Shown one piece after another: positions 1 to 13,987 of a DNA stretch of 64,000 nt. The stretch covers positions 78,721 through 142,720 of the forward strand of contig CACOSI010000003.1 in assembly GCA_902629855.1 (NCBI GenBank). The letters are read 5' to 3'. Made by a program: the position numbers and the translations under genes. The first letter of the stretch is position 1, and the number at the start of each line of letters is the position of its first letter. The notes below the pieces were generated by a model. The model worked only from the letters and a program-made list of their open reading frames with translations. It was not told the DNA's origin and made no database searches. This DNA comes from an uncultured Fidelibacterota bacterium (GTDB lineage: Bacteria > Fidelibacterota > Marinisomatia > Marinisomatales > Marinisomataceae).

Positions 1-387
1 TTGGAGCCTCAACTATCTTTAAAAATTGATAATTCATCAAAATCAGCACTTGGAAAAGAGGTTCAAAATCAATTAAATGCTTATTTTAAAGGAAAGCTTA
101 AAAAATTTGATTTACCATTGAATATTTCTGGATCAGACTTTACAAAAAATGCTCTTAATGAAATACAAAAAATACCTTTTGGTAAAACTTCTACTTATAA
201 AAAAATTGCTGAAAAAATTAAAGAACCAAAATCAGCAAGAGCTGTTGGAAGGGTAAGTGGTGCAAATAAAATTCCCATTATAATTCCATGTCATCGCGTT
301 GTAGGAAGTTCTGGAGAACTTGTAGGTTATAGCGGAGGTGGAGGTTTATTATTTAAATCATATTTACAACTTTTGGAGAAAAAATGA
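1..387 (+). CDS. ogt: methylated-DNA-protein-cysteine methyltransferase (5' part probably outside window)
   Basis: Active-site IIIPCHRVV and ARAVG helix; frame open at window edge. Confidence 0.92.
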   Translation: MEPQLSLKIDNSSKSALGKEVQNQLNAYFKGKLKKFDLPLNISGSDFTKNALNEIQKIPFGKTSTYKKIAEKIKEPKSARAVGRVSGANKIPIIIPCHRVVGSSGELVGYSGGGGLLFKSYLQLLEKK

Positions 388-1361
388 TTAAAATTTTAAT
401 ACTATTTATCACTCTAGCATTCGCACAAGAAGACAATAATCATGAGCTTATTTATTTTGAAAGTGCAAATCCATTTTCATTTGAAGAAATTATTACAGAT
501 CTTGATAATCAAGAAAGACAGGAAGTTTTTGGAAAGCTAAAATTACCTAAAAATTTTGATAAAAATTTAAAGTATCCACTAATTATTGGAGTTGCTGGAA
601 GTTTAAACTGGGGTCCTCATCACTTAAAATATTTAGAAATGTATCGTTCATTAGGGTTTGCTACATTTCAATTACAAAGTTTCGATAGTAGAGATGTTCA
701 ATCTACAGTTGGTAGTCAGATAGAAGTTACCTCCGCAATGATGATTCTTGATAGTTACCTTGCTCTTGAAACGTTGTCAAAACATCCAAATATTGATATA
801 AATAGAGCTGGAATAACAGGGTGGAGCTTAGGAGGGACTGTGTCACTGTATTCTGCATGGATGCCTTTAATTAATTCAATTAATAATGGAGAATTTAGAT
901 TTGCTGCTCATTTACCAATTTATCCTGGGTGTTTAGCATATCCTTATCCTGATGAATCTATGATTTTTAGTCAAGCACCAGTACATATTTTGATTGGTGA
1001 GTTGGATGACTGGGTGCCAGCTTATGCATGTACAAATCTTCTTGATAAATTGAATGAAAGCGGGTTACCGCATAATATAGATATTACCATTTATGAAGAT
1101 GCTCATCACTCTTATGATAGAGAAATGGAGTTAACTACAATTGAGCACGGATATACGCTTGGAGATTGTTTCTTTCCAATGAATGATGAAGGTGCATTAT
1201 TTTTAAGTGAATTTTGGAATATTCCGATAAATACTCCTATAAGGCAAAAACTTGCACTGCTAACATGCGCAGGTAGAGGGCCAACAATGGGAGGTAATAA
1301 AGATGCTAGAGAAAAATCATTTAAGTTTTCGGCAGATTTTTTCATAGAAAACCTTAAATAA
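384..1361 (+). CDS. secreted dienelactone hydrolase-family alpha/beta hydrolase
   Basis: Signal peptide, GWSLGG nucleophile elbow, GELDDW, AHHSYD. Confidence 0.75.
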   Translation: MIKILILFITLAFAQEDNNHELIYFESANPFSFEEIITDLDNQERQEVFGKLKLPKNFDKNLKYPLIIGVAGSLNWGPHHLKYLEMYRSLGFATFQLQSFDSRDVQSTVGSQIEVTSAMMILDSYLALETLSKHPNIDINRAGITGWSLGGTVSLYSAWMPLINSINNGEFRFAAHLPIYPGCLAYPYPDESMIFSQAPVHILIGELDDWVPAYACTNLLDKLNESGLPHNIDITIYEDAHHSYDREMELTTIEHGYTLGDCFFPMNDEGALFLSEFWNIPINTPIRQKLALLTCAGRGPTMGGNKDAREKSFKFSADFFIENLK

Positions 1362-1417
1362 AAATTATTTTTTAACTAATAAACATTTTTTCAATTTTTT
1401 ATTATTATTTTAATATT

Positions 1418-3820
1418 ATGTTTTCAAGCAAAAAACCATTTCTATACTTATTGTTCGGTTTATTTTTCGTATTGTATTTAATGTATCAATCAATTTTTTC
1501 TCCGCCAGAAATTCAGTATGAAGGAATTAACAAAAAATTAAAATTAATTGATGATGTAGAAGTTTATTTCGATGATTATGGTGTTCCAAATATATTTGCA
1601 AAAAATGATTCCGATATGTTTAAAGTAGCTGGTTACGTCGGTGCTAGGGATAGATTATTCCAAATGGCCTTTATGAAATATGCATATAAAGGTCAATTAA
1701 GTTTAGTTTTGAATGATACACTTTTTGCTGAGGATAAGTTTCTTAGAACCCTAGGATTTGAAAAAATAGCAGTAAAAACATTAGAAAAAATTCCTCCTGA
1801 GATTATTAAACACTTAGAAGATACATGCGAAGGTATTAATGCTTATTCTCAAGAACTGGAACCAAAAAACTTTCCTTTAGAGTTTAAACTACTGCGCATC
1901 AAAGATTTACCTGTCTTTGAACCATTAGATATTGTTGCTTTATCCACCATGATGGCTTGGGAGCTTCAAGGTGGTTGGGATTCAGAATTATTTTTTGGAG
2001 CAATTAATGAACAGCTTGGCCCAGAATATTTAAATGATATCTTACCGCAATATGATCCAAATTTTGTTACGATTGCTAGTAATGACCTTTTAAAAGAGAG
2101 TTATCAAGATTATTCATCAATAACTAAAAATATTAGAGAAATCATGCATACAGACAGAGATGGTTACGGATCTAATGCTTGGGCCGTCTCAGGTAGTAAA
2201 ACAAGCTCTGGATTGCCATTATTAGCCAATGACCCTCATTTAAGTTACAACTTACCTCCATGGTGGTATGAAATTAGATTACAAAGTGATAATTACGACT
2301 TTGGAGGGTATGGATTATATGGATTTCCTTTACCAGTAATTGGACATAATAAAGATATAGGTTGGGGTTTCACCAATGTTATGACAGATGACATGGATTT
2401 TTATATTGAAACACTCAATGAAGATCAAACAAAATATATGCTTGATGATAAGTGGGTTGACTTAAAAATTGAAGAGGAAGAAATTAATCTTGAATCTGGA
2501 AATAAAAGAAAAATCGTAATTAAATCAACTCACAGAGGACCTATAATCAGCGGAGTTCATAGTGACGCGAAAAACCTTAATAAAGCAATTTCTTTTAGAT
2601 GGACTGAATTTGATGCTTTTGATGAAACCACTGCATTGTTTATGCTTGCTAAAGCTAAAAATTGGCAAGATTTAAATGAGGCTTCAAAGCTTTTTGGTGC
2701 TCCGGGTCAAAATTGGACTTTTGCTGATAAAAATGGAAATATTGGATGGAGACCATCTTCAAAAATTCCTATCAGAAAAAACGCTGAAATGTTAATTCCG
2801 TTTGACGGTAGCACTTCTGAATTTGACTGGAAAGGCTATGTGCCATTTGAAAAAATGCCATTCTTGTACAATCCGCCCAAAGGATACATTTCAAATGGTA
2901 ATAATAAAATTATTAGTGATGATTACCCATTTTATATTTCTCGCTATTGGGCCGATCCTAGCAGAGGAGAACAAATCAAAAGGAGGCTTGAAGAAAAAGA
3001 TTCTTATAACATTGAGGACATGAAATCAATTTTAAATGATATTAATTCTCCGTTTGGAGAGGAATATGCTCCATTATTTATTAAAAATTATTCTGAGGGC
3101 TTTTCTGATGAGGGAGATATAATATTAAATTTATTAAATGATTGGGATGGAGTAGAATCTTTAGACTCATCTGCAGCAGTTGCTTTTCATAGCGTCTATC
3201 TTCATCTGATACAAAATTTATTTCAAGATGAATTATCTAATCTTGGAGAAGACACTGCATTTGATTCATTTTACAGCCTAAAATACATTCGCTCATTGGC
3301 AATTAGGAGAATTCTTGACGGTCAACCTTCTTTGTGGATTGATAATGTTCTTTCAGATAAAAAAGAGAATTTAAATGATATTGTGAATGAGTCTTTTCAT
3401 GATGCTTATAATTTCCTGTCAGAAAATTTAGGAAATCCAAAAGAACTAACTTGGGGCAAAGTTCATCAGGTTACATATAGACATCGATTGGATGGAGATC
3501 CAATTGTTAAAAAATTGATTAATTTTAGTGTGGGTCCCTACCCAATGTCTGGTTCTGGATTCACACCAAGGGCAGCAAGTTATTCTGTTAGTAAGCCATT
3601 TGAAGTTAGAGCAGGATCATCTATGAGGCGAATAATTGATTTTTCTAATTTTGATAATGGTTTGAGCATACTGCCAACTGGACAATCAGGTCAATTCAAC
3701 TCTTTACATTATAAAGATCAAACAGAAAAATATAATAAAGGAGAATTTAAACCATTTAAATTTTCCAAGGAAGCTATCCAGTCAAGCTCACACAGAAAAC
3801 TCATTTTCCAAAGTAAATAA
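1418..3820 (+). CDS. penicillin acylase-family Ntn hydrolase, N-terminal membrane anchor
   Basis: DDYGVPNIFA, DRLFQM, G|SNAWAV autocleavage site, LANDPHL, PTGQSG. Confidence 0.9.
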   Translation: MFSSKKPFLYLLFGLFFVLYLMYQSIFSPPEIQYEGINKKLKLIDDVEVYFDDYGVPNIFAKNDSDMFKVAGYVGARDRLFQMAFMKYAYKGQLSLVLNDTLFAEDKFLRTLGFEKIAVKTLEKIPPEIIKHLEDTCEGINAYSQELEPKNFPLEFKLLRIKDLPVFEPLDIVALSTMMAWELQGGWDSELFFGAINEQLGPEYLNDILPQYDPNFVTIASNDLLKESYQDYSSITKNIREIMHTDRDGYGSNAWAVSGSKTSSGLPLLANDPHLSYNLPPWWYEIRLQSDNYDFGGYGLYGFPLPVIGHNKDIGWGFTNVMTDDMDFYIETLNEDQTKYMLDDKWVDLKIEEEEINLESGNKRKIVIKSTHRGPIISGVHSDAKNLNKAISFRWTEFDAFDETTALFMLAKAKNWQDLNEASKLFGAPGQNWTFADKNGNIGWRPSSKIPIRKNAEMLIPFDGSTSEFDWKGYVPFEKMPFLYNPPKGYISNGNNKIISDDYPFYISRYWADPSRGEQIKRRLEEKDSYNIEDMKSILNDINSPFGEEYAPLFIKNYSEGFSDEGDIILNLLNDWDGVESLDSSAAVAFHSVYLHLIQNLFQDELSNLGEDTAFDSFYSLKYIRSLAIRRILDGQPSLWIDNVLSDKKENLNDIVNESFHDAYNFLSENLGNPKELTWGKVHQVTYRHRLDGDPIVKKLINFSVGPYPMSGSGFTPRAASYSVSKPFEVRAGSSMRRIIDFSNFDNGLSILPTGQSGQFNSLHYKDQTEKYNKGEFKPFKFSKEAIQSSSHRKLIFQSK

Positions 3821-3830
3821 AATATTTATC

Positions 3831-3859
3831 TTGAATACATCTAATTGCATACTTAAACT
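3831..3859 (+). promoter_or_regulatory. sigma70-like promoter of the aro leader
   Basis: TTGAAT (3831-3836), 17-nt spacer, TAAACT (3854-3859); expected +1 falls at about 3866, the leader ATG. Confidence 0.6.
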
Positions 3860-3865
3860 AGGTTA

Positions 3866-3925
3866 ATGAACAATTTTTATAACTTTTATTTTTATTTTGA
3901 AAGAAGGGGGACTGTAGGCGCCTAA
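3866..3925 (+). CDS. Phe/Tyr-rich attenuator leader peptide, MNNFYNFYFYFERRGTVGA
   Basis: Hand translation: ATG 3866 to TAA 3925, 7 of 8 consecutive codons are TTT or TAT; lies upstream of a terminator and Phe/Tyr biosynthesis genes. Confidence 0.88.
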   Translation: MNNFYNFYFYFERRGTVGA

Positions 3926-3957
3926 AGATAAACTTATATTGCAACTACACGAACCCT
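3905..3957 (+). promoter_or_regulatory. putative antiterminator helix of the attenuator
   Basis: AGGG 3905-3908 pairs CCCT 3954-3957, TGTAG 3913-3917 pairs CTACA 3945-3949, GCG 3918-3920 pairs TGC 3940-3942; overlaps the 5' arm of the terminator. Confidence 0.65.
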
Positions 3958-3980
3958 AGCAAAACCCGCTGGGGTTTTTT
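3952..3980 (+). terminator. attenuator intrinsic terminator
   Basis: AACCCTAGC-AAAACCC-GCTGGGGTT stem-loop (one G.U) running into a T6 tract (3975-3980), located before the first structural gene. Confidence 0.85.
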
Positions 3981-3997
3981 GTTATATGGAGGTAATT

Positions 3998-4258
3998 ATG
4001 AATGAAGAAATACTAAAAAAAAGAGAAATTATTGATAGCGTAGATAGTAAAATTTTTGATTTATTACTTGAAAGATTAGATGCTGTCAATTCTATTGGTT
4101 ATTTAAAAAAGCAAGAAGGTTTACCAGTTTTAGATCAAGAAAGAGAAAATGCAATCTATGCAAAAATTGATGCAAAATTCTCAATAGTTGAGTCTTCTTT
4201 TTTAAAGCCAATTTATAGAACAATTATAACCGAATCGAAGAAAGTAGAGGAGTTGTAA
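3998..4258 (+). CDS. monofunctional chorismate mutase (AroQ class, CM_2)
   Basis: REIIDSVDSKIFDLLLER, IGYLKK, VLDQERE, ITESK; start moved to ATG 3998 behind GGAGG. Confidence 0.88.
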   Translation: MNEEILKKREIIDSVDSKIFDLLLERLDAVNSIGYLKKQEGLPVLDQERENAIYAKIDAKFSIVESSFLKPIYRTIITESKKVEEL

Positions 4259-5598
4259 TGACAAAATGGTCAAAAGATTCTTGGAAAGAATTTAAAATAA
4301 AACATATACCGGAATACAAAGATCCAAGGCAACTGGAAAAAGCTTTAAAAAAGTTAGAAGGATTTCCCCCTCTAGTTTTTGCAGGTGAATGTAGAAATTT
4401 AAAAGAAGATTTAGCTAAAGCTACAAATGGTGAAGCATTTTTAGTCCAAGGAGGTGACTGCGCTGAAAGTTTTAAAGAATTTAATGCAAATAATATCAGA
4501 GACACCTTTCGAGTAATTTTACAAATGAGTGCTGTTATCACTGCTAAATTAAAGGTTCCTGTGATCAAGCTTGGAAGAATTGCAGGTCAATTTGCTAAGC
4601 CAAGAACATCTGATCATGAAACAATTAATGGAGAAAGATTAAACAGTTATTACGGTGATTCAATAAATGATATTGAATTTTCAGCTGAAAAACGTGAACC
4701 TAATCCTGCTAGACTTCTTAGAGCATACTCACAATCTGCCTCAACACTAAACCTGTTAAGATCATTCGCGCAAGGGGGATTTGCCAATCTAAGAAAAGTA
4801 AACTCATGGAATATGGGTTTTGTAAAAGCAAGTAAAGAGGGAAAAAAATATGAAAAAATTGCAGCTAAGATTAATGAATATTTAGATTTTATGGATGCTG
4901 TAGGTGTAAATACTTCAAAAGTAATTGATTTAAATACAGTTGAGTTCTTCACAAGCCATGAAGGCTTGCATCTTCCATATGAATCTGCATTAACTCGAGT
5001 TGATTCACTCACTAATGAGGTTTATTGTACTTCAGCACATTTTATATGGATTGGCGATAGAACTCGCTTTATAGATAGTGCACATGTAGAATTTTGTAGA
5101 GGAATAAGCAATCCAATTGGTATCAAGTGTGGCCCAAGTTTGGAACCAAAAGAATTAATAAAAATTATAGAAAAAATTAACCCAGAAAATCAAGCTGGAA
5201 AAATTTCACTAATTTTTAGATATGGTGAAAACAATATAGATAAATATTTACCAAAACTCGTTGATGAAATCATCAAAAATAAGAAAAAAGTTCTGTGGAT
5301 TTCTGATCCTATGCACGGAAATACAGTGAAATCCTCATCAGGCCTAAAAACTCGTGATTTTAATGCTTTACTAAAAGAAACATCAAAGTCTATTAAAATT
5401 TTAAAAAAGAAAGGATGTCATTTAGGAGGAATTCATCTTGAAATGACAGGTCAAAACGTTACTGAGTGCACAGGAGGAATCTATAAACTAGGTGATGATG
5501 ATCTTAATTCAAGATACCATACGCATTGTGACCCAAGATTGAATGCTAATCAAGCGTTAGAGCTCTCTTTCAATATTGCAGAGGAGCTACAAGGTTAA
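4258..5598 (+). CDS. class II DAHP synthase
   Basis: QGGDCAESF, GRIAGQFAKPR, WIGDRTR, DPMHGNT, CDPRLN. Confidence 0.95.
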   Translation: MTKWSKDSWKEFKIKHIPEYKDPRQLEKALKKLEGFPPLVFAGECRNLKEDLAKATNGEAFLVQGGDCAESFKEFNANNIRDTFRVILQMSAVITAKLKVPVIKLGRIAGQFAKPRTSDHETINGERLNSYYGDSINDIEFSAEKREPNPARLLRAYSQSASTLNLLRSFAQGGFANLRKVNSWNMGFVKASKEGKKYEKIAAKINEYLDFMDAVGVNTSKVIDLNTVEFFTSHEGLHLPYESALTRVDSLTNEVYCTSAHFIWIGDRTRFIDSAHVEFCRGISNPIGIKCGPSLEPKELIKIIEKINPENQAGKISLIFRYGENNIDKYLPKLVDEIIKNKKKVLWISDPMHGNTVKSSSGLKTRDFNALLKETSKSIKILKKKGCHLGGIHLEMTGQNVTECTGGIYKLGDDDLNSRYHTHCDPRLNANQALELSFNIAEELQG

Positions 5599-6849
5599 AT
5601 GCTAGTTCAAGGTACATTGCAACTTCCAGGAGATAAATCTATTTCTCATAGAGCAATTATGCTTTCGGCCATAGCTGATGGAGTTAGTTATGTTAAAAAT
5701 TTAAATGATGGAGCTGATCTGCAATCAACAATTAATATTTTAAGGGATTGTGGAGCTTCGATTGATCATAAGGAGGATGAGCTCGTAATAAATGGAAAAA
5801 AACTTCATTCTCCATCCAAAGATCTTGATTGTGGCAATTCAGGCACTACCACTAGACTGGTTGCAGGATTATTAGCTTCTCAAAAATTAACATTCTCATT
5901 AATTGGAGATGAATCATTATCAAAAAGACCAATGAAGCGAATAATTACACCTTTAAAATCAATGGGATGTAAAATTTCCTCAAATAATGGATTATTGCCT
6001 TTGTCAATAGATGCTTCTGATGGCACTAGCGCTATAGACTTTGATATGAAAGTTGCGAGCGCACAGGTGAAATCATGTATACTTTTTTCCGCGTTAGGCG
6101 GAAATAATGTATCAAGTATTAATGAGATTATTCCAACGAGAAATCATTCTGAGATTATGTTAAAAAATATGGGAGCATCAATTGAAAGAGAAGGAAGTAA
6201 AATTATAGTTCATCCGCTTAAATCCAAATTAAAGCCGATTGATATTTCTATACCCTCAGATCCATCTTCAGCCGCCTTTTTTGCTGCTTTAGCAGTCATT
6301 AATAATAATTCAAATTTAAAGTTGACTAATGTATTGCTTAACGAGTCTAGAATTGGATTTGTTGAAGTTCTTAATGAAATGAATTGTTTAATATCAAAAT
6401 CAAATGAATCAATTCACAATGGTGAAAAAGTTGGAGATTTAACTATTAGTTCATCTAATCTTAAAGCAATAGAAATTGAATCAGAAACTATACCATCAAT
6501 TATTGATGAAGTACCAGTACTAGCGGTTGTAGCGGCTTTTGCAAACGGCACAACAGTTTTTAAAAATGTTGAAGAGTTAAAATATAAAGAATGTGATAGA
6601 TTAAGCGCAATTATACATAATCTAGAAGCATTTGGAATCAAGGCATATGAAAAAAATAATGATTTATTTGTCGAGGGTGGTAAGGTAAAAAGAATGCCTA
6701 AAATAACTTCGTTTGATGATCATAGAATTGCTATGGCATTTACAATTTTAAGTCTTACTTCTTTTGAAAAATATGAGCTTGATAATGAGAAATGTGTTGA
6801 TATTTCATTACCAAAATTTTTCAATTATCTTAGTGAGATAACCAAATGA
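5599..6849 (+). CDS. aroA: EPSP synthase
   Basis: LPGDKSISHRA, CGNSGTT, ASAQVKS, KECDRL, DDHRIAM. Confidence 0.96.
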   Translation: MLVQGTLQLPGDKSISHRAIMLSAIADGVSYVKNLNDGADLQSTINILRDCGASIDHKEDELVINGKKLHSPSKDLDCGNSGTTTRLVAGLLASQKLTFSLIGDESLSKRPMKRIITPLKSMGCKISSNNGLLPLSIDASDGTSAIDFDMKVASAQVKSCILFSALGGNNVSSINEIIPTRNHSEIMLKNMGASIEREGSKIIVHPLKSKLKPIDISIPSDPSSAAFFAALAVINNNSNLKLTNVLLNESRIGFVEVLNEMNCLISKSNESIHNGEKVGDLTISSSNLKAIEIESETIPSIIDEVPVLAVVAAFANGTTVFKNVEELKYKECDRLSAIIHNLEAFGIKAYEKNNDLFVEGGKVKRMPKITSFDDHRIAMAFTILSLTSFEKYELDNEKCVDISLPKFFNYLSEITK

Positions 6850-7664
6850 AATTTGCAGTTATAGGAAATCCAATTGATAAAAGTTTAAGCCCTCAGCTTC
6901 ATGAAATTCTTTATGAGAAATTAAATATTTTGAACTGTTCTTTTAAAAAAATTCATTTAGAAAATGATAAACTAGATAATTTTTTTAAAAATGATTTTGA
7001 TTTATTTGATGGAATAAATGTTACAATACCATTTAAAAGTAAAGTAGTAAAATTTTTGAATTCTATTGATAATGAAGCAAAAATTTTAGGTAATGTAAAT
7101 TGTATTTCAAAATCAAATAATATGATTTGTGGATTTAATACTGATAAGTATGGATTTGATATGCTACTAAATAAAAATGAAATAGTTGTTGAGGGAAGTA
7201 GCTGTATTGTTCTTGGGGCTGGATCATCCTCAAAAACAGTAGTTAAATGCTTAATTGACCAAGGAGTTGGTAGGATTATTATAAAAAATAGATCTTTAGA
7301 TAATGCTAGGGATATTAAAAATTTTGCTTATAGCCTTGGATTTAAAAATATTGAGTTATTTAATTTAAATTTTCCCAGTTTTGATATTGCAATCAATACA
7401 ACCCCAATAGGAATGTATAAGGAAGATAAAGACAACTTTTTTCACATACCTGTTGATAAAAACACAACAATTATAGACCTTATTTATACTTCAAAAGAAA
7501 CATTATTTTTGAGAAAATTTGATCAGTGCTCCCAAAAAGTAAATGGTCTTGATATGTTTATTTACCAGGCTTTGAAGTCTATTGAAATTTGGAGAGAAAC
7601 TAACTATAATTTGGATTCACAGATTGAATCTGTGAGAAAACAATTGGAGAATATAAAATGTTAA
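6846..7664 (+). CDS. aroE: shikimate dehydrogenase
   Basis: SLSPQLH, NVTIPFK, NTDKYGF, GAGS, NTTPIGM, GLDMFIYQA. Confidence 0.92.
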   Translation: MKFAVIGNPIDKSLSPQLHEILYEKLNILNCSFKKIHLENDKLDNFFKNDFDLFDGINVTIPFKSKVVKFLNSIDNEAKILGNVNCISKSNNMICGFNTDKYGFDMLLNKNEIVVEGSSCIVLGAGSSSKTVVKCLIDQGVGRIIIKNRSLDNARDIKNFAYSLGFKNIELFNLNFPSFDIAINTTPIGMYKEDKDNFFHIPVDKNTTIIDLIYTSKETLFLRKFDQCSQKVNGLDMFIYQALKSIEIWRETNYNLDSQIESVRKQLENIKC

Positions 7665-8818
7665 AAAAAATATCATACATGACTGCTGGAGAATCACATG
7701 GTAAAGGTTTAATAGGTATTATTGAGGGAATTCCTGCAGGTCTTCTATTGACAGAAGAATATATTGCAATAGACCTTTTAAGAAGGATGCAAGGTCATGG
7801 AAGAGGTGGTAGGATGAAAATTGAAAAAGACTTTGCAGAAATTTTTTCAGGTGTTAGACACGAGAAAACACTTGGTTCTCCAATTTCACTCATAATTAAG
7901 AATTTGGATTGGGTAAATTGGGAGGACAGGATGGCAGTCGGCAAACCTGAAAAAGAACATAAGAAGATTTCTATGCCTCGTCCTGGACATGCTGATTTAG
8001 CTGGTATGATGAAATATGATTTTGATGATTTAAGAAATGTTCTTGAGCGCTCATCTGCAAGGGAAACAGCTATGAGAGTTGCAATAGGCGCTATTTGTAA
8101 AAGACTTTTAGAAGAGGTTGGGATTCTCATTGGCAGTAGAGTTTATCAAATTCATGATATCGTTGATAAAACGCCTGTTTCAGCAAATATGTTATTAAAA
8201 GATTTGAATGATACCGCCGACGCATCTGCTGTTAGATGTCTAGATAAAGATATTGAGGCTAAGATGATTGAAGTAATTGATACTGCAAAGCGTAATGGGG
8301 ACTCTGTTGGTGGATCATTTGAGGTAGTAGCATCAGGATTACCTTATGGCTTAGGCTCATACATAAATGCTGATGGCAAACTACAAGCTCGAATAACTCA
8401 AGCTATGATGTCAGTTAATGCTTTTAAAGGTGTTGAGCTAGGAGCGGGCTTTGCTTCGAGTGCAGCTTTTGGTAGCGAACTTCATGATGAAATACTTCTT
8501 GAAGATAATAAAATTACGCGTTCTAGCAATAATGCCGGAGGTATTGAAGGTGGAATGAGCAATGCTCAACCTATTCATGTAAAAGTAAGTATGAAACCTC
8601 TATCTACTTTAGTTAAACCTTTAAAGTCAATTGATTTAGAGAAAATGGAACCAGTATTAGCTCATAAAGAAAGGACAGATTCGTGTGCTGTTCCAGCAGC
8701 GTCTATTATTGGTGAAAGTATGTTAGCCATTGTTTTAGCAGATGCACTATTAGAAAAATTTGGTGGCGATAGTATAGAACAACTCAAAAAGCACATTAAA
8801 AGTAGTGGAAGATATTAA
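7658..8818 (+). CDS. aroC: chorismate synthase
   Basis: TAGESHG, PRPGHADL, ERSSARETA, NNAGGIEGG. Confidence 0.97.
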   Translation: MLKKISYMTAGESHGKGLIGIIEGIPAGLLLTEEYIAIDLLRRMQGHGRGGRMKIEKDFAEIFSGVRHEKTLGSPISLIIKNLDWVNWEDRMAVGKPEKEHKKISMPRPGHADLAGMMKYDFDDLRNVLERSSARETAMRVAIGAICKRLLEEVGILIGSRVYQIHDIVDKTPVSANMLLKDLNDTADASAVRCLDKDIEAKMIEVIDTAKRNGDSVGGSFEVVASGLPYGLGSYINADGKLQARITQAMMSVNAFKGVELGAGFASSAAFGSELHDEILLEDNKITRSSNNAGGIEGGMSNAQPIHVKVSMKPLSTLVKPLKSIDLEKMEPVLAHKERTDSCAVPAASIIGESMLAIVLADALLEKFGGDSIEQLKKHIKSSGRY

Positions 8819-9314
8819 AAATATTTACATGATTGGCATGATGGGTTCTGGTAAATCGTCCGTTGGAGAACTGTTGTCGAGAAGAATGAGTTGGAAATTT
8901 ATTGATTTTGATCAAGAAATAGAAAATGATGAAAAATGTACAATAAATGAAATTTTTAGCGAGAATGAGAGCAGATTTAGAAAATTAGAAACAAAAAAAA
9001 TTCATGAACTCAAGGACTTCAATAGAACTATTTTTTCGACGGGTGGTGGGATTGTTATGAATAAGAAAAACTATGATTTACTTTCAAATTCATTCTGTAT
9101 TTACTTAAAAACTTCTATCAGCGAAATCTTGAAGCGAATCGAGCAAGATAATTCAAGACCTTTAATTAAAAATAAAAAGTTAGAAACGCTAAATAATATT
9201 GAAAAAGAAAGACAAAACGTATATAGCTCTTTAGCTGATTTAACTATAAATACTGATAACAAATCTATTGATGAAATCTGTAGTATTATTGAGGAAAAAA
9301 TCAATGTCAAATAA
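8805..9314 (+). CDS. aroK: shikimate kinase
   Basis: GMMGSGKS, ESRFRKLE, STGGG, RPL. Confidence 0.93.
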   Translation: MEDIKNIYMIGMMGSGKSSVGELLSRRMSWKFIDFDQEIENDEKCTINEIFSENESRFRKLETKKIHELKDFNRTIFSTGGGIVMNKKNYDLLSNSFCIYLKTSISEILKRIEQDNSRPLIKNKKLETLNNIEKERQNVYSSLADLTINTDNKSIDEICSIIEEKINVK

Positions 9315-10374
9315 AGTAAAAGTTAACTTAGGTAAAGAAAGTTATGACATTTTATTTAGTTCAGACTTTGCACTTTCAATAAAAAATCATGCTGAAAAAG
9401 TTAAGTCTGATTGTTTGATTATTACGCAAAAAAATATTGCTAATTTATTTCAAGAACAGTTTAAAGTACTCCATAATATTGATAATGTTTTTTTTATTTA
9501 TTTAGAAGATGGAGAAAAGGCAAAATCTATTGATTCAATAATGAAGATTTGCAATTATATGTCTGAAAAAAATTTTGATAGATCCTCGAAGATTTTTGCT
9601 GTTGGAGGAGGTGTTGTAGGTGATATTTCTGGATTTGCAGCATCTATTTTTATGAGAGGTATTGACTATTATCAATATCCAACAACTTTGCTAGCGATGA
9701 TAGACTCTTCTGTTGGAGGTAAAACCGGAATTAATTTAGATAAAGGAAAAAATTTAGTCGGAAGAATTTATCAGCCAAAAGAGGTTTTAATTGATACCAT
9801 ATTTTTGTCAACATTGCCAGGTAGACAGTTTAATGCTGCTTTAGCTGAAGCTATAAAGTATGGCTTCATTTATGATAGAGATTTATTTTTCTTAATTAAT
9901 AATAATATTGAAAATATTCTACAAAATAGGTCTATAGAATTAATAAAAAAAATTATAACCAATTGTTGCGAAATTAAAAGTGATATTGTAAGTGAAGATG
10001 TTAATGAAAACGAACTAAGGATGATTCTAAATTTTGGACATACAATTGGTCATGCGCTTGAGGCATATCAAAATTATAAAGAGCTTTTACATGGAGAAGC
10101 TATATTTTATGGTATGAAATGCGCAATAAGCATTTCACATAAAAAAGGTTCATTAAATGAATCAGAATACAATACTTCAATGGAGGTTTTAAATAGATTT
10201 AATCTACCTTTAATCAAAATTCAAGATAAAGAAAAATTAATCGCTTTAATCAAAAATGATAAAAAATTTAGGGAAAAGGAAATAAACTTTATTTTACTTG
10301 ATGAAATAGGAAAAGCTTATATTTCATCGGATATAAAAATGAATGATATTGAAGAAAGCTTGAGTTGCATATGA
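9304..10374 (+). CDS. aroB: 3-dehydroquinate synthase
   Basis: GGGVVGD, PTTLLAMIDSSVGGKT, LNFGHTIGHALE, HGEA; start at ATG 9304. Confidence 0.95.
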   Translation: MSNKVKVNLGKESYDILFSSDFALSIKNHAEKVKSDCLIITQKNIANLFQEQFKVLHNIDNVFFIYLEDGEKAKSIDSIMKICNYMSEKNFDRSSKIFAVGGGVVGDISGFAASIFMRGIDYYQYPTTLLAMIDSSVGGKTGINLDKGKNLVGRIYQPKEVLIDTIFLSTLPGRQFNAALAEAIKYGFIYDRDLFFLINNNIENILQNRSIELIKKIITNCCEIKSDIVSEDVNENELRMILNFGHTIGHALEAYQNYKELLHGEAIFYGMKCAISISHKKGSLNESEYNTSMEVLNRFNLPLIKIQDKEKLIALIKNDKKFREKEINFILLDEIGKAYISSDIKMNDIEESLSCI

Positions 10375-10802
10375 GGATACTAATTATCAATGGCCCAAAC
10401 CTAAATTTATTGGGTGAAAGGGAGACAAATATTTATGGATCAGAAACATTAGATCAAATAAATAATTGGATTTTAAATCACGAACTTTGTAAAGATTTTG
10501 ATATTAAATTTTTTCAATCTAACTCGGAAGGAAAAATAATTGATTTTCTTCATTCAAATAGAAAAAATTCTGACTATTGTTTAATAAATCCTGGAGCATT
10601 AACACATTATTCATATTCCCTAAGGGATGCAATTGTTGCATGCCAAATTCCAACAATAGAGATTCATTTATCAGATATTCATAAAAGAGAAAATTTTAGA
10701 AAGATATCAGTAATTAAGAGCGTTTGTTTAGAGCAGATTTATGGACGAGGAAAAGAAGGTTATATCATTGCTATTAAAAGAATTTTGGAGGAAAAATTAT
10801 GA
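10371..10802 (+). CDS. aroQ: type II 3-dehydroquinate dehydratase
   Basis: NGPNLNLLGERE, NPGALTHYS, EIHLS; ATGA overlap with aroB. Confidence 0.95.
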   Translation: MRILIINGPNLNLLGERETNIYGSETLDQINNWILNHELCKDFDIKFFQSNSEGKIIDFLHSNRKNSDYCLINPGALTHYSYSLRDAIVACQIPTIEIHLSDIHKRENFRKISVIKSVCLEQIYGRGKEGYIIAIKRILEEKL

Positions 10803-11368
10803 TTATTGGTATTCAAGGAATAGAAGGAAGCTTTAGCGAGGAAGCTGCAAAATCTTATTGTAAAAAATTTAACATTGAGAATTTTTCAATCGAATATCTT
10901 GTAAGTTCAATGAATGTGTTAGATCATTTATCAAAAAAATCAATTGATACTGGAGTTTTTGCCATGGAAAATGCTCAAGGTGGAGTTGTTATTGAAAGCG
11001 TTGAAGCACTAGCAAGAAATAATTGTGAAATCATTGATATGTTTTATGTTGAAATCAGCCAAAATTTATTAGCTAAACCTGGAATATCATTGGGTGATAT
11101 TGAAGAAATACATTCCCATGAACAAGCACTAAAGCAGTGTAAAGATTATTTAGCAGAAAAATTTTGGTCAAAGAAGCTTGTTGAGCAGGCAGATACTGCA
11201 AAAGCAGCCCAAGATTTATCTGAAAACAAACTTGATAATAATGTTGCTGTAATTGCTAGTAAGTTTTCAGCAAAAAAATATGGACTACAAATTTTAGAAA
11301 ATGATATACATGATTTAAAGAGAAATCTAACTCTTTTCTTAGCTGTTAAAAGGATAAGTAATGAATAA
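10799..11368 (+). CDS. pheA: prephenate dehydratase, catalytic domain only
   Basis: QGIEGSFSEEA, ENAQGG, SHEQALKQC, NLTLF (TRF-equivalent); ends before any ACT domain. Confidence 0.85.
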   Translation: MIIGIQGIEGSFSEEAAKSYCKKFNIENFSIEYLVSSMNVLDHLSKKSIDTGVFAMENAQGGVVIESVEALARNNCEIIDMFYVEISQNLLAKPGISLGDIEEIHSHEQALKQCKDYLAEKFWSKKLVEQADTAKAAQDLSENKLDNNVAVIASKFSAKKYGLQILENDIHDLKRNLTLFLAVKRISNE

Positions 11369-12074
11369 AGTAAGTATTATTGGTTTTGGAAGGTTTGGAG
11401 CAATGCTTCATTCACTATTATCAAAAGGTTTTGAGGTAGATGTTTATGATAAAAATCCCATTAACAATTCAGATATCAATGAAGTTACTTTAGAAAATGC
11501 TTTATTAAATGAAACAATTTTTATTGCTGTTCCAATAAGAGATTTTGAAGATTTAATAATACAAATATCTGATAAGATTTCAGAAGGTAAGACCATCATC
11601 GATGTTTGTTCGGTAAAAGTATATCCAAAGAAAGTAATGACAGCTAATATTCCGTCAGACGTAGATATAATTGCAACACATCCACTTTTTGGTCCTGATT
11701 CTTTGAAAGATAGTGGATCTGTAATGACAATGGAGTCAGTAAGAGACTCTTATGATAGATATGATTTTTGGAAAAATTATTTTTCAAGTCAAAACATTAT
11801 TATTGAAGAAATTTCTGCAGAAGAACATGATATGATGGCAGCAAAATCTCAAGGTTTAACACATTTTGTTGGTAGAATTATTGATGACTTTGGAACTAGT
11901 CAAACCAGAATTGATACGGAAGGTTACAAGGCCTTACATAAATTAGTTAATCAAACATGCAATGACTCTTGGGAATTATTTGAAGACATTCAAAATTATA
12001 ATCCATATACTAATAAAATGATATCAGAATTGAATGGAAGTTTCAAAAAAATTAGCGAAATTATAGATAAATAA
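11361..12074 (+). CDS. tyrA: prephenate/arogenate dehydrogenase
   Basis: GFGRFG, DVCSVK, HPLFGP, EEHD, SQGLTH. Confidence 0.88.
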   Translation: MNKVSIIGFGRFGAMLHSLLSKGFEVDVYDKNPINNSDINEVTLENALLNETIFIAVPIRDFEDLIIQISDKISEGKTIIDVCSVKVYPKKVMTANIPSDVDIIATHPLFGPDSLKDSGSVMTMESVRDSYDRYDFWKNYFSSQNIIIEEISAEEHDMMAAKSQGLTHFVGRIIDDFGTSQTRIDTEGYKALHKLVNQTCNDSWELFEDIQNYNPYTNKMISELNGSFKKISEIIDK

Positions 12075-12084
12075 CGGAGGGAAA

Positions 12085-12444
12085 ATGGATAATATTTTTA
12101 ACAAAATAAGTATAAGCTTAATAGTTTTAGGAATTGTTTTTTATTTTTTAGCAAGCACTTTTACTGCTTTAATACCATCTATACTTGGTGCATTGATGCA
12201 AATAGTGTTGTTGTTAGGTAGACAATTTCCAAGTTTTCATAAGCATTTTGCTCATGTTAACATGTTAATTTTAGTTTTAGGTATGGGAGCAACATACGGA
12301 TCAGTCATATCAATCTTTGCATATTTATTTAGTGGGACTGAACTGGAAAGACCTTTAGCAACTGTTGAGCAGTTTACTACTTTTATACTTTGTTTAGTTG
12401 GAATGATTATTGGTATAAAATCATTTATTGATGCTAGAAAATAA
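12085..12444 (+). CDS. small 4-TM membrane protein of unknown function
   Basis: Four hydrophobic segments, TALIP and HFAH motifs, GGAGG RBS. Confidence 0.7.
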   Translation: MDNIFNKISISLIVLGIVFYFLASTFTALIPSILGALMQIVLLLGRQFPSFHKHFAHVNMLILVLGMGATYGSVISIFAYLFSGTELERPLATVEQFTTFILCLVGMIIGIKSFIDARK

Positions 12445-12499
12445 ATAGAAACATCCTAACATATTTTTGGTTTAAAATTATATAAACATTGGAGAAGAT

Positions 12500-13000
12500 A
12501 TGAAAATAGTACTACTAGTATTGGTCTTAACATCGTCATTATTTGCTCAATCTGCCGATAAAGAAAAAATTGGCAAAAATCGTATGAAAATGATGCAAGA
12601 AAAAGAAGTTTTTATAATTGCAGCTATGACAAAAGATCTCAATATTTCATCAGAACAGGCTGAAAAATTCTTTCCTATTCACAATGAGTACAAAAAGAAA
12701 TCGGAAGAAGCAAAGTTATCTCATTCAAAACACATTAGAAATTTAAGAGAAGAAGCTAAAAATGATCGTTCTAAATTTGACGTTGATTCGGCTATTGATT
12801 CAAAGCTTAAAATGCAAGGAAAGCTAGCAAGATTGGAGAGTAAGTTTCTAAAAGATACCAAAGGTATTTTAACTGAAGATCAAAGAGTTAAACTTCTTTT
12901 TTTTGAGGAGAGAATGAAAACAAGAATGGCAAAAAATAAATCTGAAAAGAATGCTGAGCTTGAAAAAAGAAATTTTGACAGAAAGAAAAAAAGGAACTAA
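12500..13000 (+). CDS. secreted helical Spy/CpxP-like protein
   Basis: Signal peptide, LNISSEQ and ILTEDQR (LTxEQ-like) repeats. Confidence 0.6.
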   Translation: MKIVLLVLVLTSSLFAQSADKEKIGKNRMKMMQEKEVFIIAAMTKDLNISSEQAEKFFPIHNEYKKKSEEAKLSHSKHIRNLREEAKNDRSKFDVDSAIDSKLKMQGKLARLESKFLKDTKGILTEDQRVKLLFFEERMKTRMAKNKSEKNAELEKRNFDRKKKRN

Positions 13001-13030
13001 TTTTATAAAAATTTATATAGGAAAAATAAA

Positions 13031-13933
13031 ATGAGAAAACTAACAATAATTTTAACGACCTTATTTGTCTTCTATGGATGTGATGATAACATGTCTTACA
13101 TGGGAGATAAAATGATTCCAGACGCCCAACTTATTGAGCTGATTGATGCAGATCCAAATAAATTCGAAATAGATGCAATGGATATGCCTGAATTGACCAA
13201 AAATGTTGTTGATGCAGAATATTATGATTACATGATTATTTCAGCTGAAATATCTCCAGAATATGGATATAAGCTTTCATTAGGTGATATGGCTCTTGAT
13301 GCTGGCGATGTCGCGGGTTTATACTTTGCTAAAGATGGAAGAAAGCTTGGTAGAAAAGATGGTACAGATGACAGAAAAAGACATAAGAAAAGATGTTTTA
13401 GATTTGTATATCCACTAACATTTAGTTTAGGTGAAACATCTTATACCGTGAATGACCATAGTGAATTCAAAGAGGCTATGAAAGCGCATTATGAAGAAAC
13501 TGGTGAGAAACAAAGACCAGCCTATGCTTATCCGATCGAAGTTCAATTTAAAGGTGAAGAAGGAACTGTAGCGATAAATTCTGATGAAGAGTTAAAAGAA
13601 GCTTTTCAAGCCTGCAGAGGTGAACATAATGACAAAAAATGTTTCTCTTTAGGTTTTCCAGTTAGTTTTACTATGCCTGATGGGTCAGTATTAACTGCCG
13701 AAGATGAAGAAGATTTAGAGGAAAAAATGAAAGCCTTTTACGAATCTTATGAAGGTAAGAAGAAAAGACCTAGAGTGATTTATCCAGTAGATCTTGTTTT
13801 TGAGGACGGATCAACTTTAACTGTGAATTCTTTTCAAGAGATGAAACAAGCTTGGAGAGATAACTGCAGAAAAAGAGGCGATGACGATGGTGACGGAGAA
13901 GGTGAAGGCGAAAGTGAAGGAACTAGAGGCTAA
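13031..13933 (+). CDS. lipoprotein with PepSY-like region and four (Y/F)P repeats
   Basis: Lipobox FYGC; repeats CFRFVYP, RPAYAYP, CFSLGFP, RPRVIYP. Confidence 0.65.
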   Translation: MRKLTIILTTLFVFYGCDDNMSYMGDKMIPDAQLIELIDADPNKFEIDAMDMPELTKNVVDAEYYDYMIISAEISPEYGYKLSLGDMALDAGDVAGLYFAKDGRKLGRKDGTDDRKRHKKRCFRFVYPLTFSLGETSYTVNDHSEFKEAMKAHYEETGEKQRPAYAYPIEVQFKGEEGTVAINSDEELKEAFQACRGEHNDKKCFSLGFPVSFTMPDGSVLTAEDEEDLEEKMKAFYESYEGKKKRPRVIYPVDLVFEDGSTLTVNSFQEMKQAWRDNCRKRGDDDGDGEGEGESEGTRG

Positions 13934-13957: not shown

Positions 13958-13987
13958 AAAGGGCTACTTATAAAAGTAGCCCTTTTT
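13958..13987. terminator. bidirectional intrinsic terminator
   Basis: AAAGGGCTACTT-ATAA-AAGTAGCCCTTT plus T run between convergent genes. Confidence 0.88.

Follow-up and report, generated by a model that had tools for sequence, protein, structure and literature searches.

The question raised by the locus described here is whether a 120-nucleotide (nt) element, situated between an amidase gene and a ten-gene operon for the synthesis of phenylalanine (Phe) and tyrosine (Tyr), acts as a transcription attenuator that senses the supply of both amino acids. The locus lies within a 64,000-nt stretch of contig CACOSI010000003.1 (assembly GCA_902629855.1), referred to here as the window and used as the reference for all positions unless another locus is named, from an uncultured member of the Marinimicrobia (SAR406; Fidelibacterota in GTDB). 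The Marinimicrobia are abundant, uncultured ocean bacteria and, to our knowledge, essentially nothing is known about their gene regulation. A preliminary description of the window, made from the sequence without database searches, had proposed that a leader peptide rich in Phe and Tyr codons, an intrinsic terminator and a competing antiterminator control the operon. Comparison with related genomes supports this interpretation, every sequence-level prediction that was set as a test came out positive, and we consider it very probable that the element is a ribosome-mediated leader-peptide transcription attenuator of the Phe/Tyr biosynthetic operon.

The small open reading frame (sORF) at 3866-3925 encodes a leader peptide of 19 residues, MNNFYNFYFYFERRGTVGA, and the proposed concentration of four Phe and three Tyr codons within eight codons can be read directly in the sequence (Table 1). 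The terminator, for which limits of 3952-3980 had been suggested, was identified both by a pattern scan (3951-3977, with 10 pairs, 5 of them G-C, a 7-nt loop and a T-run thereafter) and by folding (3951-3960 paired to 3968-3977 at approximately -15.7 kcal/mol), and its limits were adjusted to 3951-3983. Folding of RNA that ends upstream of the terminator 3' arm produces an antiterminator of approximately -13 kcal/mol in which the partners of 3906-3909 and 3912-3917 are 3954-3957, 3951 and 3945-3949, in agreement with the pairing of 3905-3920 with 3940-3957 that had been predicted. The two helices are mutually exclusive, as both need 3951 and 3954-3957, the nucleotides that make up the terminator's G-C core. 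Masking the RNA, as a ribosome might, gave the anticipated outcome: with masking to 3905 or less, the minimum-energy fold contains the antiterminator, and with masking to 3910 or beyond it contains the full terminator instead. Within the codon block, folding gives only a weak A-U hairpin, which is no competitor of the antiterminator. The first G of the G-run lies 17 nt before the start of the stop codon.

These positions suggest how the element would work. Transcription would begin at or beside the AUG of the sORF. If Phe-tRNA and Tyr-tRNA are both plentiful, the ribosome would reach the stop codon at 3923 and sit on the antiterminator 5' strand (3906-3917); by the ribosome footprint sizes in general use, a ribosome with its A site at 3923 would cover roughly 3905-3935 and hide that strand, with the consequence that the terminator (3951-3977) and its U-run would fold and RNA polymerase would halt before the gene for chorismate mutase (CM). 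A shortage of either charged tRNA would stall the ribosome within codons 4-11 (3875-3898), at least 9 nt upstream of the strand. A stall with the A site on codons 4-10 would place the edge of the ribosome no further than approximately 3905, leaving 3906-3917 free, and at codon 11 the ribosome would cover two or three of the G residues. The free strand would then pair with 3945-3957 and remove the G-C core of the terminator, allowing the polymerase to enter the ten genes. The interleaving of Phe and Tyr codons would give the switch an either/or logic.

In a sample of 38 genomes of the genus the leader was found in at least 31, of which 28 were identified by DNA search and three more by a covariance model (R1), and in two of the remaining seven the gene for DAHP synthase (DAHPS) is cut by a contig end. 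These loci yield 29 distinct leader sequences, and the expectation that orthologous loci would carry both a Phe/Tyr sORF and a terminator was thereby borne out. All 29 sequences have an invariant ATG and are 18 or 19 codons long, every indel being of 3 nt; they encode two to four Phe and three or four Tyr residues, and none encodes tryptophan (Trp), as had been noted for the window's leader. The Phe/Tyr block has been maintained through Phe-Tyr swaps and through synonymous changes (TTC or TAC at 16 of the 186 Phe/Tyr codons). Spacing is similarly constrained: measured from its first nt, the last Phe/Tyr codon lies 9-11 nt from the G-run in 28 of the 29 leaders, the first G of that run lies 16-18 nt from the stop codon in 28 of 29, and the end of the T-run lies 55-60 nt past the stop codon. 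With these spacings, shared by 28 of 29 leaders, the antiterminator 5' strand is placed where a terminating ribosome would cover it and a stalled one would leave it free.

Both helices are also conserved, and the compensatory base-pair changes that had been proposed as a check were found in each. For the antiterminator, 94.8% of the cells of the genus alignment are paired, relative to 29-49% in slid controls, and two of its 10 pairs show changes on both sides; for the terminator 98.6% of cells are paired, three of 10 pairs show changes on both sides and the loop sequence is freely variable. The sequence TATAT at 3935-3939, in the apical region of the antiterminator, is invariant or nearly so in the 29 leaders with variable flanks, and no pairing partner or role was found for it. 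In one genome (G020:C1:263823-265144, L030) the best DAHPS match contains 16 stops and extends over several frames, which may reflect a decaying gene or a poor assembly; the leader upstream of it is intact.

None of the 29 genus leaders has a Shine-Dalgarno motif (GGAG, GAGG or AGGA) upstream of the sORF, in contrast to the structural gene for CM, which has GGAGG. The -10 box of the window ends 6 nt upstream of the sORF ATG, and a -10-like hexamer is found just upstream of the start codon in all 29 leaders, with script-measured gaps of 5-7 nt (8 nt in the L016 group, judged by eye). The lack of a Shine-Dalgarno motif together with a -10-like hexamer a few nt before the start leads us to predict a leaderless message, that is, a transcript from the predicted promoter that probably starts at or beside the AUG.

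Six of the 38 genus genomes (G005, G046, G020, G011, G016, and G018) have trpE; by this search the genus has lost the trp genes in the other 32. In all six a sORF with a GTG start, read by eye, precedes trpE and contains two Trp, one Tyr and one Phe codon, and two of these six leaders were recognized by a second model, R2. The Phe/Tyr leader of these genomes sits between trpA and CM. Their gene order starts with a penicillin-amidase homolog, continues with the Trp-containing leader and the trp operon, and ends with the Phe/Tyr leader followed by CM. The window's genome, where the Phe/Tyr leader comes immediately after the amidase gene, looks as though it had undergone a deletion of the trp leader and operon.

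Related leaders extend well beyond the genus. Two other families in the order also gave R1 matches, though weaker ones (8 of 27 sampled genomes in one and 6 of 26 in the other), and overall R1 matched 37 of 151 genomes at E ≤ 0.01; the phylum-wide draw with R2 matched 26 of 151 at E ≤ 0.001. In the scaffold that these two models describe, the start lies a few nt past a -10 box and a codon block follows; there is a G-run where the sORF ends, the strand complementary to it ends in the terminator 5' arm with an A-A-C-C-C core, and a T-run completes the element. The window's element fits it with 129.8 bits (R1) and 117.2 bits (R2), and relatives in other families with 34-87 bits. Pre-terminator RNA was folded for 13 other-family leaders, and in every one the G-run at the end of the sORF is base-paired to 4-15 nt of the terminator 5' arm. 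The duplex was more stable than the mean of 300 shuffles in each of 21 representatives (z -1.2 to -4.9), and in 15 of them its stability was equaled by at most 10 of the 300. RNAalifold, applied to a plain MAFFT alignment of the cross-family pre-terminator segments, returned 0 pairs and no consensus structure because the helices were misaligned, and was replaced by the per-sequence folds and by an alignment fitted to the model.

The codons of these leaders follow the gene downstream. Among 14 R1 places inspected, eight precede a trpE-like gene and have sORFs with Trp, Tyr, and Phe codons, three precede a gene for prephenate dehydratase (PDT) and are Phe/Tyr-rich (one with a single Trp), and two precede asnB and have runs of six or seven asparagine (Asn) codons; the remaining place, L170, is a terminator with no leader. 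Leader sORFs were present at 18 of 19 R2 places inspected, L219 being a false leader, and 11 of 13 extra R2 places were plain gene-end terminators or nothing. In the R2 set, Phe/Tyr leaders precede genes for class-I DAHPS, prephenate dehydrogenase (PDH; in one instance with PDT behind it in a single open frame) and PDT, and Trp-containing leaders precede trpE. The leaders before PDH are Tyr-rich. Pfam verified the downstream genes of ten representatives and those of the supraoperon described below, and the other trpE calls were made by eye from N-terminal likeness. From peptides read by eye, Trp codons are present in 22 of 22 leaders before trpE vs. 2 of 39 before CM, PDT, PDH, or DAHPS, a tally in which the relatives are not independent and which describes a pattern rather than a statistic.

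Other amino acids appear as well. A leader with five consecutive cysteine (Cys) codons precedes a PALP (CysK-like) enzyme (L212), leaders rich in isoleucine, leucine and valine (Ile/Leu/Val) codons precede ilvD (L208 and L214), a histidine (His)-rich leader precedes hisG (L196), and Asn-run leaders (six or seven Asn) before asnB number three in all (L168, L174, and L188). We know of no description of an Asn-run leader before asnB, and no literature search was made for one.

A sister-family genome provides an extended case (L181, G031:C12:33500-51442). There, at 379-9031, one leader with two Trp, three Tyr and two Phe codons heads a contiguous trpE-trpD-trpC-trpF-trpB-trpA-PDT-PDH-class-II DAHPS cluster, within which no second leader was found; this leader looks like a three-amino-acid sensor of an aromatic supraoperon. 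Our search of other families for a Phe/Tyr sORF directly upstream of DAHPS found none, a null that is misleading because their leaders head longer operons and lie 1-8 kb upstream. A generic genome scan for sORFs with an amino-acid run and a terminator returned 321 candidates, which were mostly meaningless. In one other-family genome (G113:C76:80509-80625, L149) a leader scored like those of the window's genus (E 6e-23), and may represent a mis-binned contig or a recent transfer.

Several considerations weigh against the attenuation interpretation or limit it. We infer the transcription start, translation of the sORF, the footprint geometry and the response to Phe and Tyr from sequence. The genus covariation is based on few independent events, and the cross-family alignment, in which 8 of 15 pairs change on both sides (40 cells) and 92.3% of cells are paired vs. 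29-60% in slid controls, was fitted to the model structure and is therefore biased toward it. Folding found neither an anti-antiterminator (a 1:2 helix) nor a clear pause hairpin; these are traits of the Escherichia coli trp paradigm rather than of the whole class of attenuators, and in their absence untranslated RNA should default to read-through, unlike in E. coli trp. In the window's version a weaker hairpin at approximately 3961-3978 (3 G-C and 4 A-U pairs) can form beside the antiterminator and may blunt the switch by leaving residual termination. (The hairpin is formed by a CCC in the terminator loop of the window's subclade, which pairs with the 3' arm; the loops of other subclades are unrelated.) All Rfam matches were sub-threshold; the Phe_leader model (RF01859) scores the element at 16.9 bits (E = 3) against a gathering threshold of 55, which places it outside that family. 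Composition is a further concern, as 8-codon windows with at least seven Phe/Tyr codons occur 18 times in the six frames of the 0.93-Mb assembly, and 3866-3985 folds with only a modest advantage over shuffled sequences (z -1.95). Taken alone, the window's element exceeds chance weakly; it is conservation and covariation that lift it above chance, on the alignments examined here.

Evidence from RNA consists of assembled Logan contigs from four marine metatranscriptome runs of one study, which contain 21-43% of the sampled words of 3300-5300. In all four runs contigs bridge the leader and terminator into CM (3794-4265, 3435-4127, 3934-4445, and 3934-4221). The bridging contigs are consistent with the existence of read-through RNA, but ends, strand and level cannot be read from them and DNA is a possible source. 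This too tempers the case, as does the start of two contigs, 3794-4265 and 3435-4127, upstream of the predicted promoter, which makes read-through from the amidase gene possible. The two contigs that begin at 3934 are from different runs, and their shared start may reflect assembly breaks.

How, then, do other explanations fare? It is feasible, if unlikely, that the attenuator effectively senses one amino acid, for instance Phe, and that the codons for the other are tolerated passengers, TTT and TAT being one base apart. Phe and Tyr codons do swap freely among the 29 genus sequences, and the mixed leader aroR of Corynebacterium glutamicum answered Phe limitation and not Tyr availability, according to the excerpted text of PMC11802643, which also counts against dual sensing by our element. 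Nevertheless, neither residue is missing from any of the 29 leaders, the operon has genes for PDT as well as PDH, and across the phylum the Tyr-rich leaders of PDH genes and the addition of Trp before trpE argue that codon identity is selected. A less probable possibility, to which we give little credence, is that the switch is set in trans by some factor, be it an RNA-binding protein, a small ligand or, as in T-boxes, an uncharged tRNA, with the sORF being incidental. Alternative helices alone are no proof of control by ribosomes, and translation of the sORF is predicted only. Against such a factor, Rfam models of T-boxes and known riboswitches gave no match up to E = 10 within 3700-4100, and the invariant start, the indels in threes and the constant distance of 16-18 nt from G-run to stop are features of a translated frame. 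Furthermore, whether the scaffold has Trp, Asn, His, Cys, or Ile/Leu/Val codons depends on the gene downstream, which a ligand or protein site leaves unexplained.

Least probable of all, to the point of being negligible, is that the element represents the terminator of the upstream amidase gene accompanied by a chance AT-rich sORF. This explanation gains something from the 18 compositional Phe/Tyr-rich windows in the genome and from the amidase gene having no other terminator before 3951. It is contradicted by synteny: the leader unit remains before CM whether the upstream gene is the amidase, trpA or another gene, with the promoter-like boxes, sORF and both helices traveling together, and it is thus not the terminator of a neighbor. 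A conserved, predicted promoter also lies between the amidase stop and the sORF. Ribosome-mediated attenuation accounts best for the mutually exclusive helices, the conserved frame and spacings, and the match in relatives between leader codons and operon.

The first structural gene downstream of the leader most likely starts at the ATG at 3998 behind GGAGG, and not at the ATG at 3986 given in the list of open reading frames (ORFs); both the GGAGG and the CM ATG are conserved in the genus alignment. CM is followed in order by class-II DAHPS, aroA (5-enolpyruvylshikimate-3-phosphate (EPSP) synthase), aroE (shikimate dehydrogenase), aroC (chorismate synthase), aroK (shikimate kinase), aroB (3-dehydroquinate (DHQ) synthase), a type-II dehydroquinase (aroQ), PDT without an ACT domain, and PDH. 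Pfam confirmed all ten genes of the aromatic operon that had been proposed and, as had been stated, no trp gene is among them. PDT (10799-11368) has 189 residues and covers positions 4-184 of a 284-position NCBIfam profile. As the match ends at 184 of 284, the enzyme lacks the C-terminal ACT regulatory domain; allosteric feedback by Phe may consequently be missing, in which case attenuation would be the main control.

Between the PDH gene (tyrA) and the next strong terminator-like hairpin downstream are three ORFs of 119, 166, and 300 residues (12085-13933), which may be co-transcribed with the operon. None of the three had an NCBIfam match or a Pfam match above threshold; the 300-residue ORF has a sub-threshold match to PB1 (E 0.00099, 19.5 bits vs. 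a cut-off of 23.6 bits). The window's assembly comprises 0.93 Mb at 31% G+C, and the genome (G000) is 88% complete. Searches of it with R1 and R2 found no second leader, the matches at C2:119020-119122 (E 0.3) and C2:101511-101611 (E 0.08) not being leaders, and trpE, asnB, and hisG were not found in it with the protein queries used.

Table 1. Coordinates of the leader, its operon and related features (window positions, except for the loci named in the fourth row).
Feature	Position	Strand	Details
Leader sORF	3866..3925	+	19 codons, then TAA; ATG 3866, stop 3923-3925; read directly
Regulatory block, sORF codons 4-11	3875-3898	+	Phe-Tyr-Asn-Phe-Tyr-Phe-Tyr-Phe (4 Phe, 3 Tyr, 1 Asn)
Predicted sigma-70-type promoter	3831..3859	+	-35 TTGAAT 3831-3836, 17-nt spacer, -10 TAAACT 3854-3859
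Genus trpE leaders	L175-L180, about 1380-1491	trpE-forward orientation	read by eye
Antiterminator 5' strand	3906..3917	+	G-run 3906-3909 plus 3912-3917; inside sORF codons 14-18
Antiterminator 3' strand	3945..3957	+	shares 3951 and 3954-3957 with the terminator 5' arm
Intrinsic terminator	3951..3983	+	stem 3951-3960/3968-3977, loop 3961-3967, T6 3975-3980, then GTT
Shine-Dalgarno and chorismate mutase gene	3988..4258	+	GGAGG 3988-3992; AroQ type, ATG 3998, 86 residues; PF01817, E 2e-17
Nine further overlapping or abutting genes	4258..12074	+	Pfam/NCBIfam
Strong terminator-like hairpin, possible end of transcription unit	13958..13985	+	pattern scan, 12 pairs

The more interesting result is, in our opinion, that attenuators with codons matched to the operon appear to form a homologous family across the phylum, probably with leaderless transcripts. 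We lean slightly toward a joint reading in which the window's element belongs to such a family, its scaffold has been re-coded repeatedly, and the Phe/Tyr leader that survives in the genus is an either/or sensor replacing an allosteric control that was lost, the latter because PDT has no ACT domain. Were this correct, the scaffold would have been coded with Trp, Tyr, and Phe for the trp-phe-tyr-DAHPS supraoperon, with Phe and Tyr for aro/phe/tyr operons, and with Asn, His, Cys, or Ile/Leu/Val elsewhere; it would be a modular, "codon-programmable" attenuator that arose naturally, and the leader before asnB, in sensing Asn, would represent a new specificity. Comparison of genomes indicates that Marinimicrobia use classical ribosome-mediated attenuation, with transcripts that are apparently leaderless. 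In a streamlined genome of ~1 Mb, one element of 120 nt probably governs the whole Phe/Tyr pathway. The element is a concrete regulatory part that can be tested, as codon swaps should re-program its specificity, and it suggests a rule for annotation whereby leader codons predict operon function and auxotrophy, for example through the loss of Trp codons alongside the trp genes.

Attenuation by leader peptide is classical for pheA, pheST, and trp operons, as summarized in the excerpt of PMC11802643. Relative to pheL-pheA and trpL-trpEDCBA of E. coli, the leader described here has mixed Phe and Tyr codons, whereas pheL has a Phe run; there is no 1:2 anti-antiterminator and no sORF Shine-Dalgarno, the -10 box is 6 nt away and the transcript is probably leaderless. 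It would also gate a ten-gene shikimate-Phe-Tyr operon, and pheL gates pheA alone. The pheL/trpL-type architecture given in the preliminary description therefore holds with respect to the end-product sORF, the terminator and the mutually exclusive antiterminator, and does not extend to the 1:2 helix or to membership of Phe_leader. Sensing of several amino acids by one leader also has precedents in E. coli, where the thr leader contains Thr and Ile codons and that of ilvGMEDA contains Ile, Leu, and Val codons. In each case, as is proposed here, one leader senses several charged tRNAs for amino acids of the same operon; those systems differ in the amino acids and in having Shine-Dalgarno-led leaders with three- or four-segment structures.

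The close functional precedent is aroR of C. glutamicum, whose primary description is reportedly that of Neshat (2014). It is a mixed Phe-Tyr-Phe leader upstream of the DAHPS gene aroF, and the portions of PMC4046766 and PMC11802643 consulted describe attenuation of an operon that starts the aromatic pathway, with transcription that is changed by Phe limitation as noted above (PMC11802643). Compared by description, the two differ in lineage (Actinobacteria vs. Marinisomatota) and in the number of regulatory codons (three vs. seven here), and in our operon CM precedes DAHPS and the full pathway follows. An ilvBNC leader peptide of C. glutamicum without a ribosome-binding site is cited in the excerpt of PMC4046766, and excerpts of two further papers concern leaderless regulatory sORFs of Actinobacteria, namely the mycobacterial polycysteine sORFs (10.1101/834739) and those of Streptomyces lividans (PMC8079986). 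As described in those excerpts, the actinobacterial elements resemble ours, as proposed, in having an amino-acid-rich sORF at the transcript 5' end that controls downstream operon genes, and they differ in lineage and in that the output of our element is an intrinsic terminator. Nearer relatives are of interest too, as the Bacteroidetes and Marinimicrobia are both within the Fibrobacteres-Chlorobi-Bacteroidetes (FCB) group. In the passages seen, PMC9723704 notes "strong clues" that amino-acid operons of Flavobacterium psychrophilum are preceded by leader-peptide attenuators, and PMC7366714 notes sORFs "reminiscent of leader peptides" in Bacteroides thetaiotaomicron. An older survey of Actinobacteria (PMC1262725), according to the passage seen, did not find an RNA element at Phe or Tyr genes.

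Our literature search found no paper that combined "Marinimicrobia" with "leader peptide," although the surveys of Vitreschak (2004) and Lopatovskaya (2010) may list related elements. The suggestion that the element had not been described in this lineage fits that search, and the type of element clearly has precedent. Our understanding of attenuation itself is unchanged: the mechanism is well known, leaders with mixed codons are textbook examples and aroR is a close functional precedent, and what appears new, as far as that search goes, is the occurrence of a probable attenuator of this kind in the Marinimicrobia.

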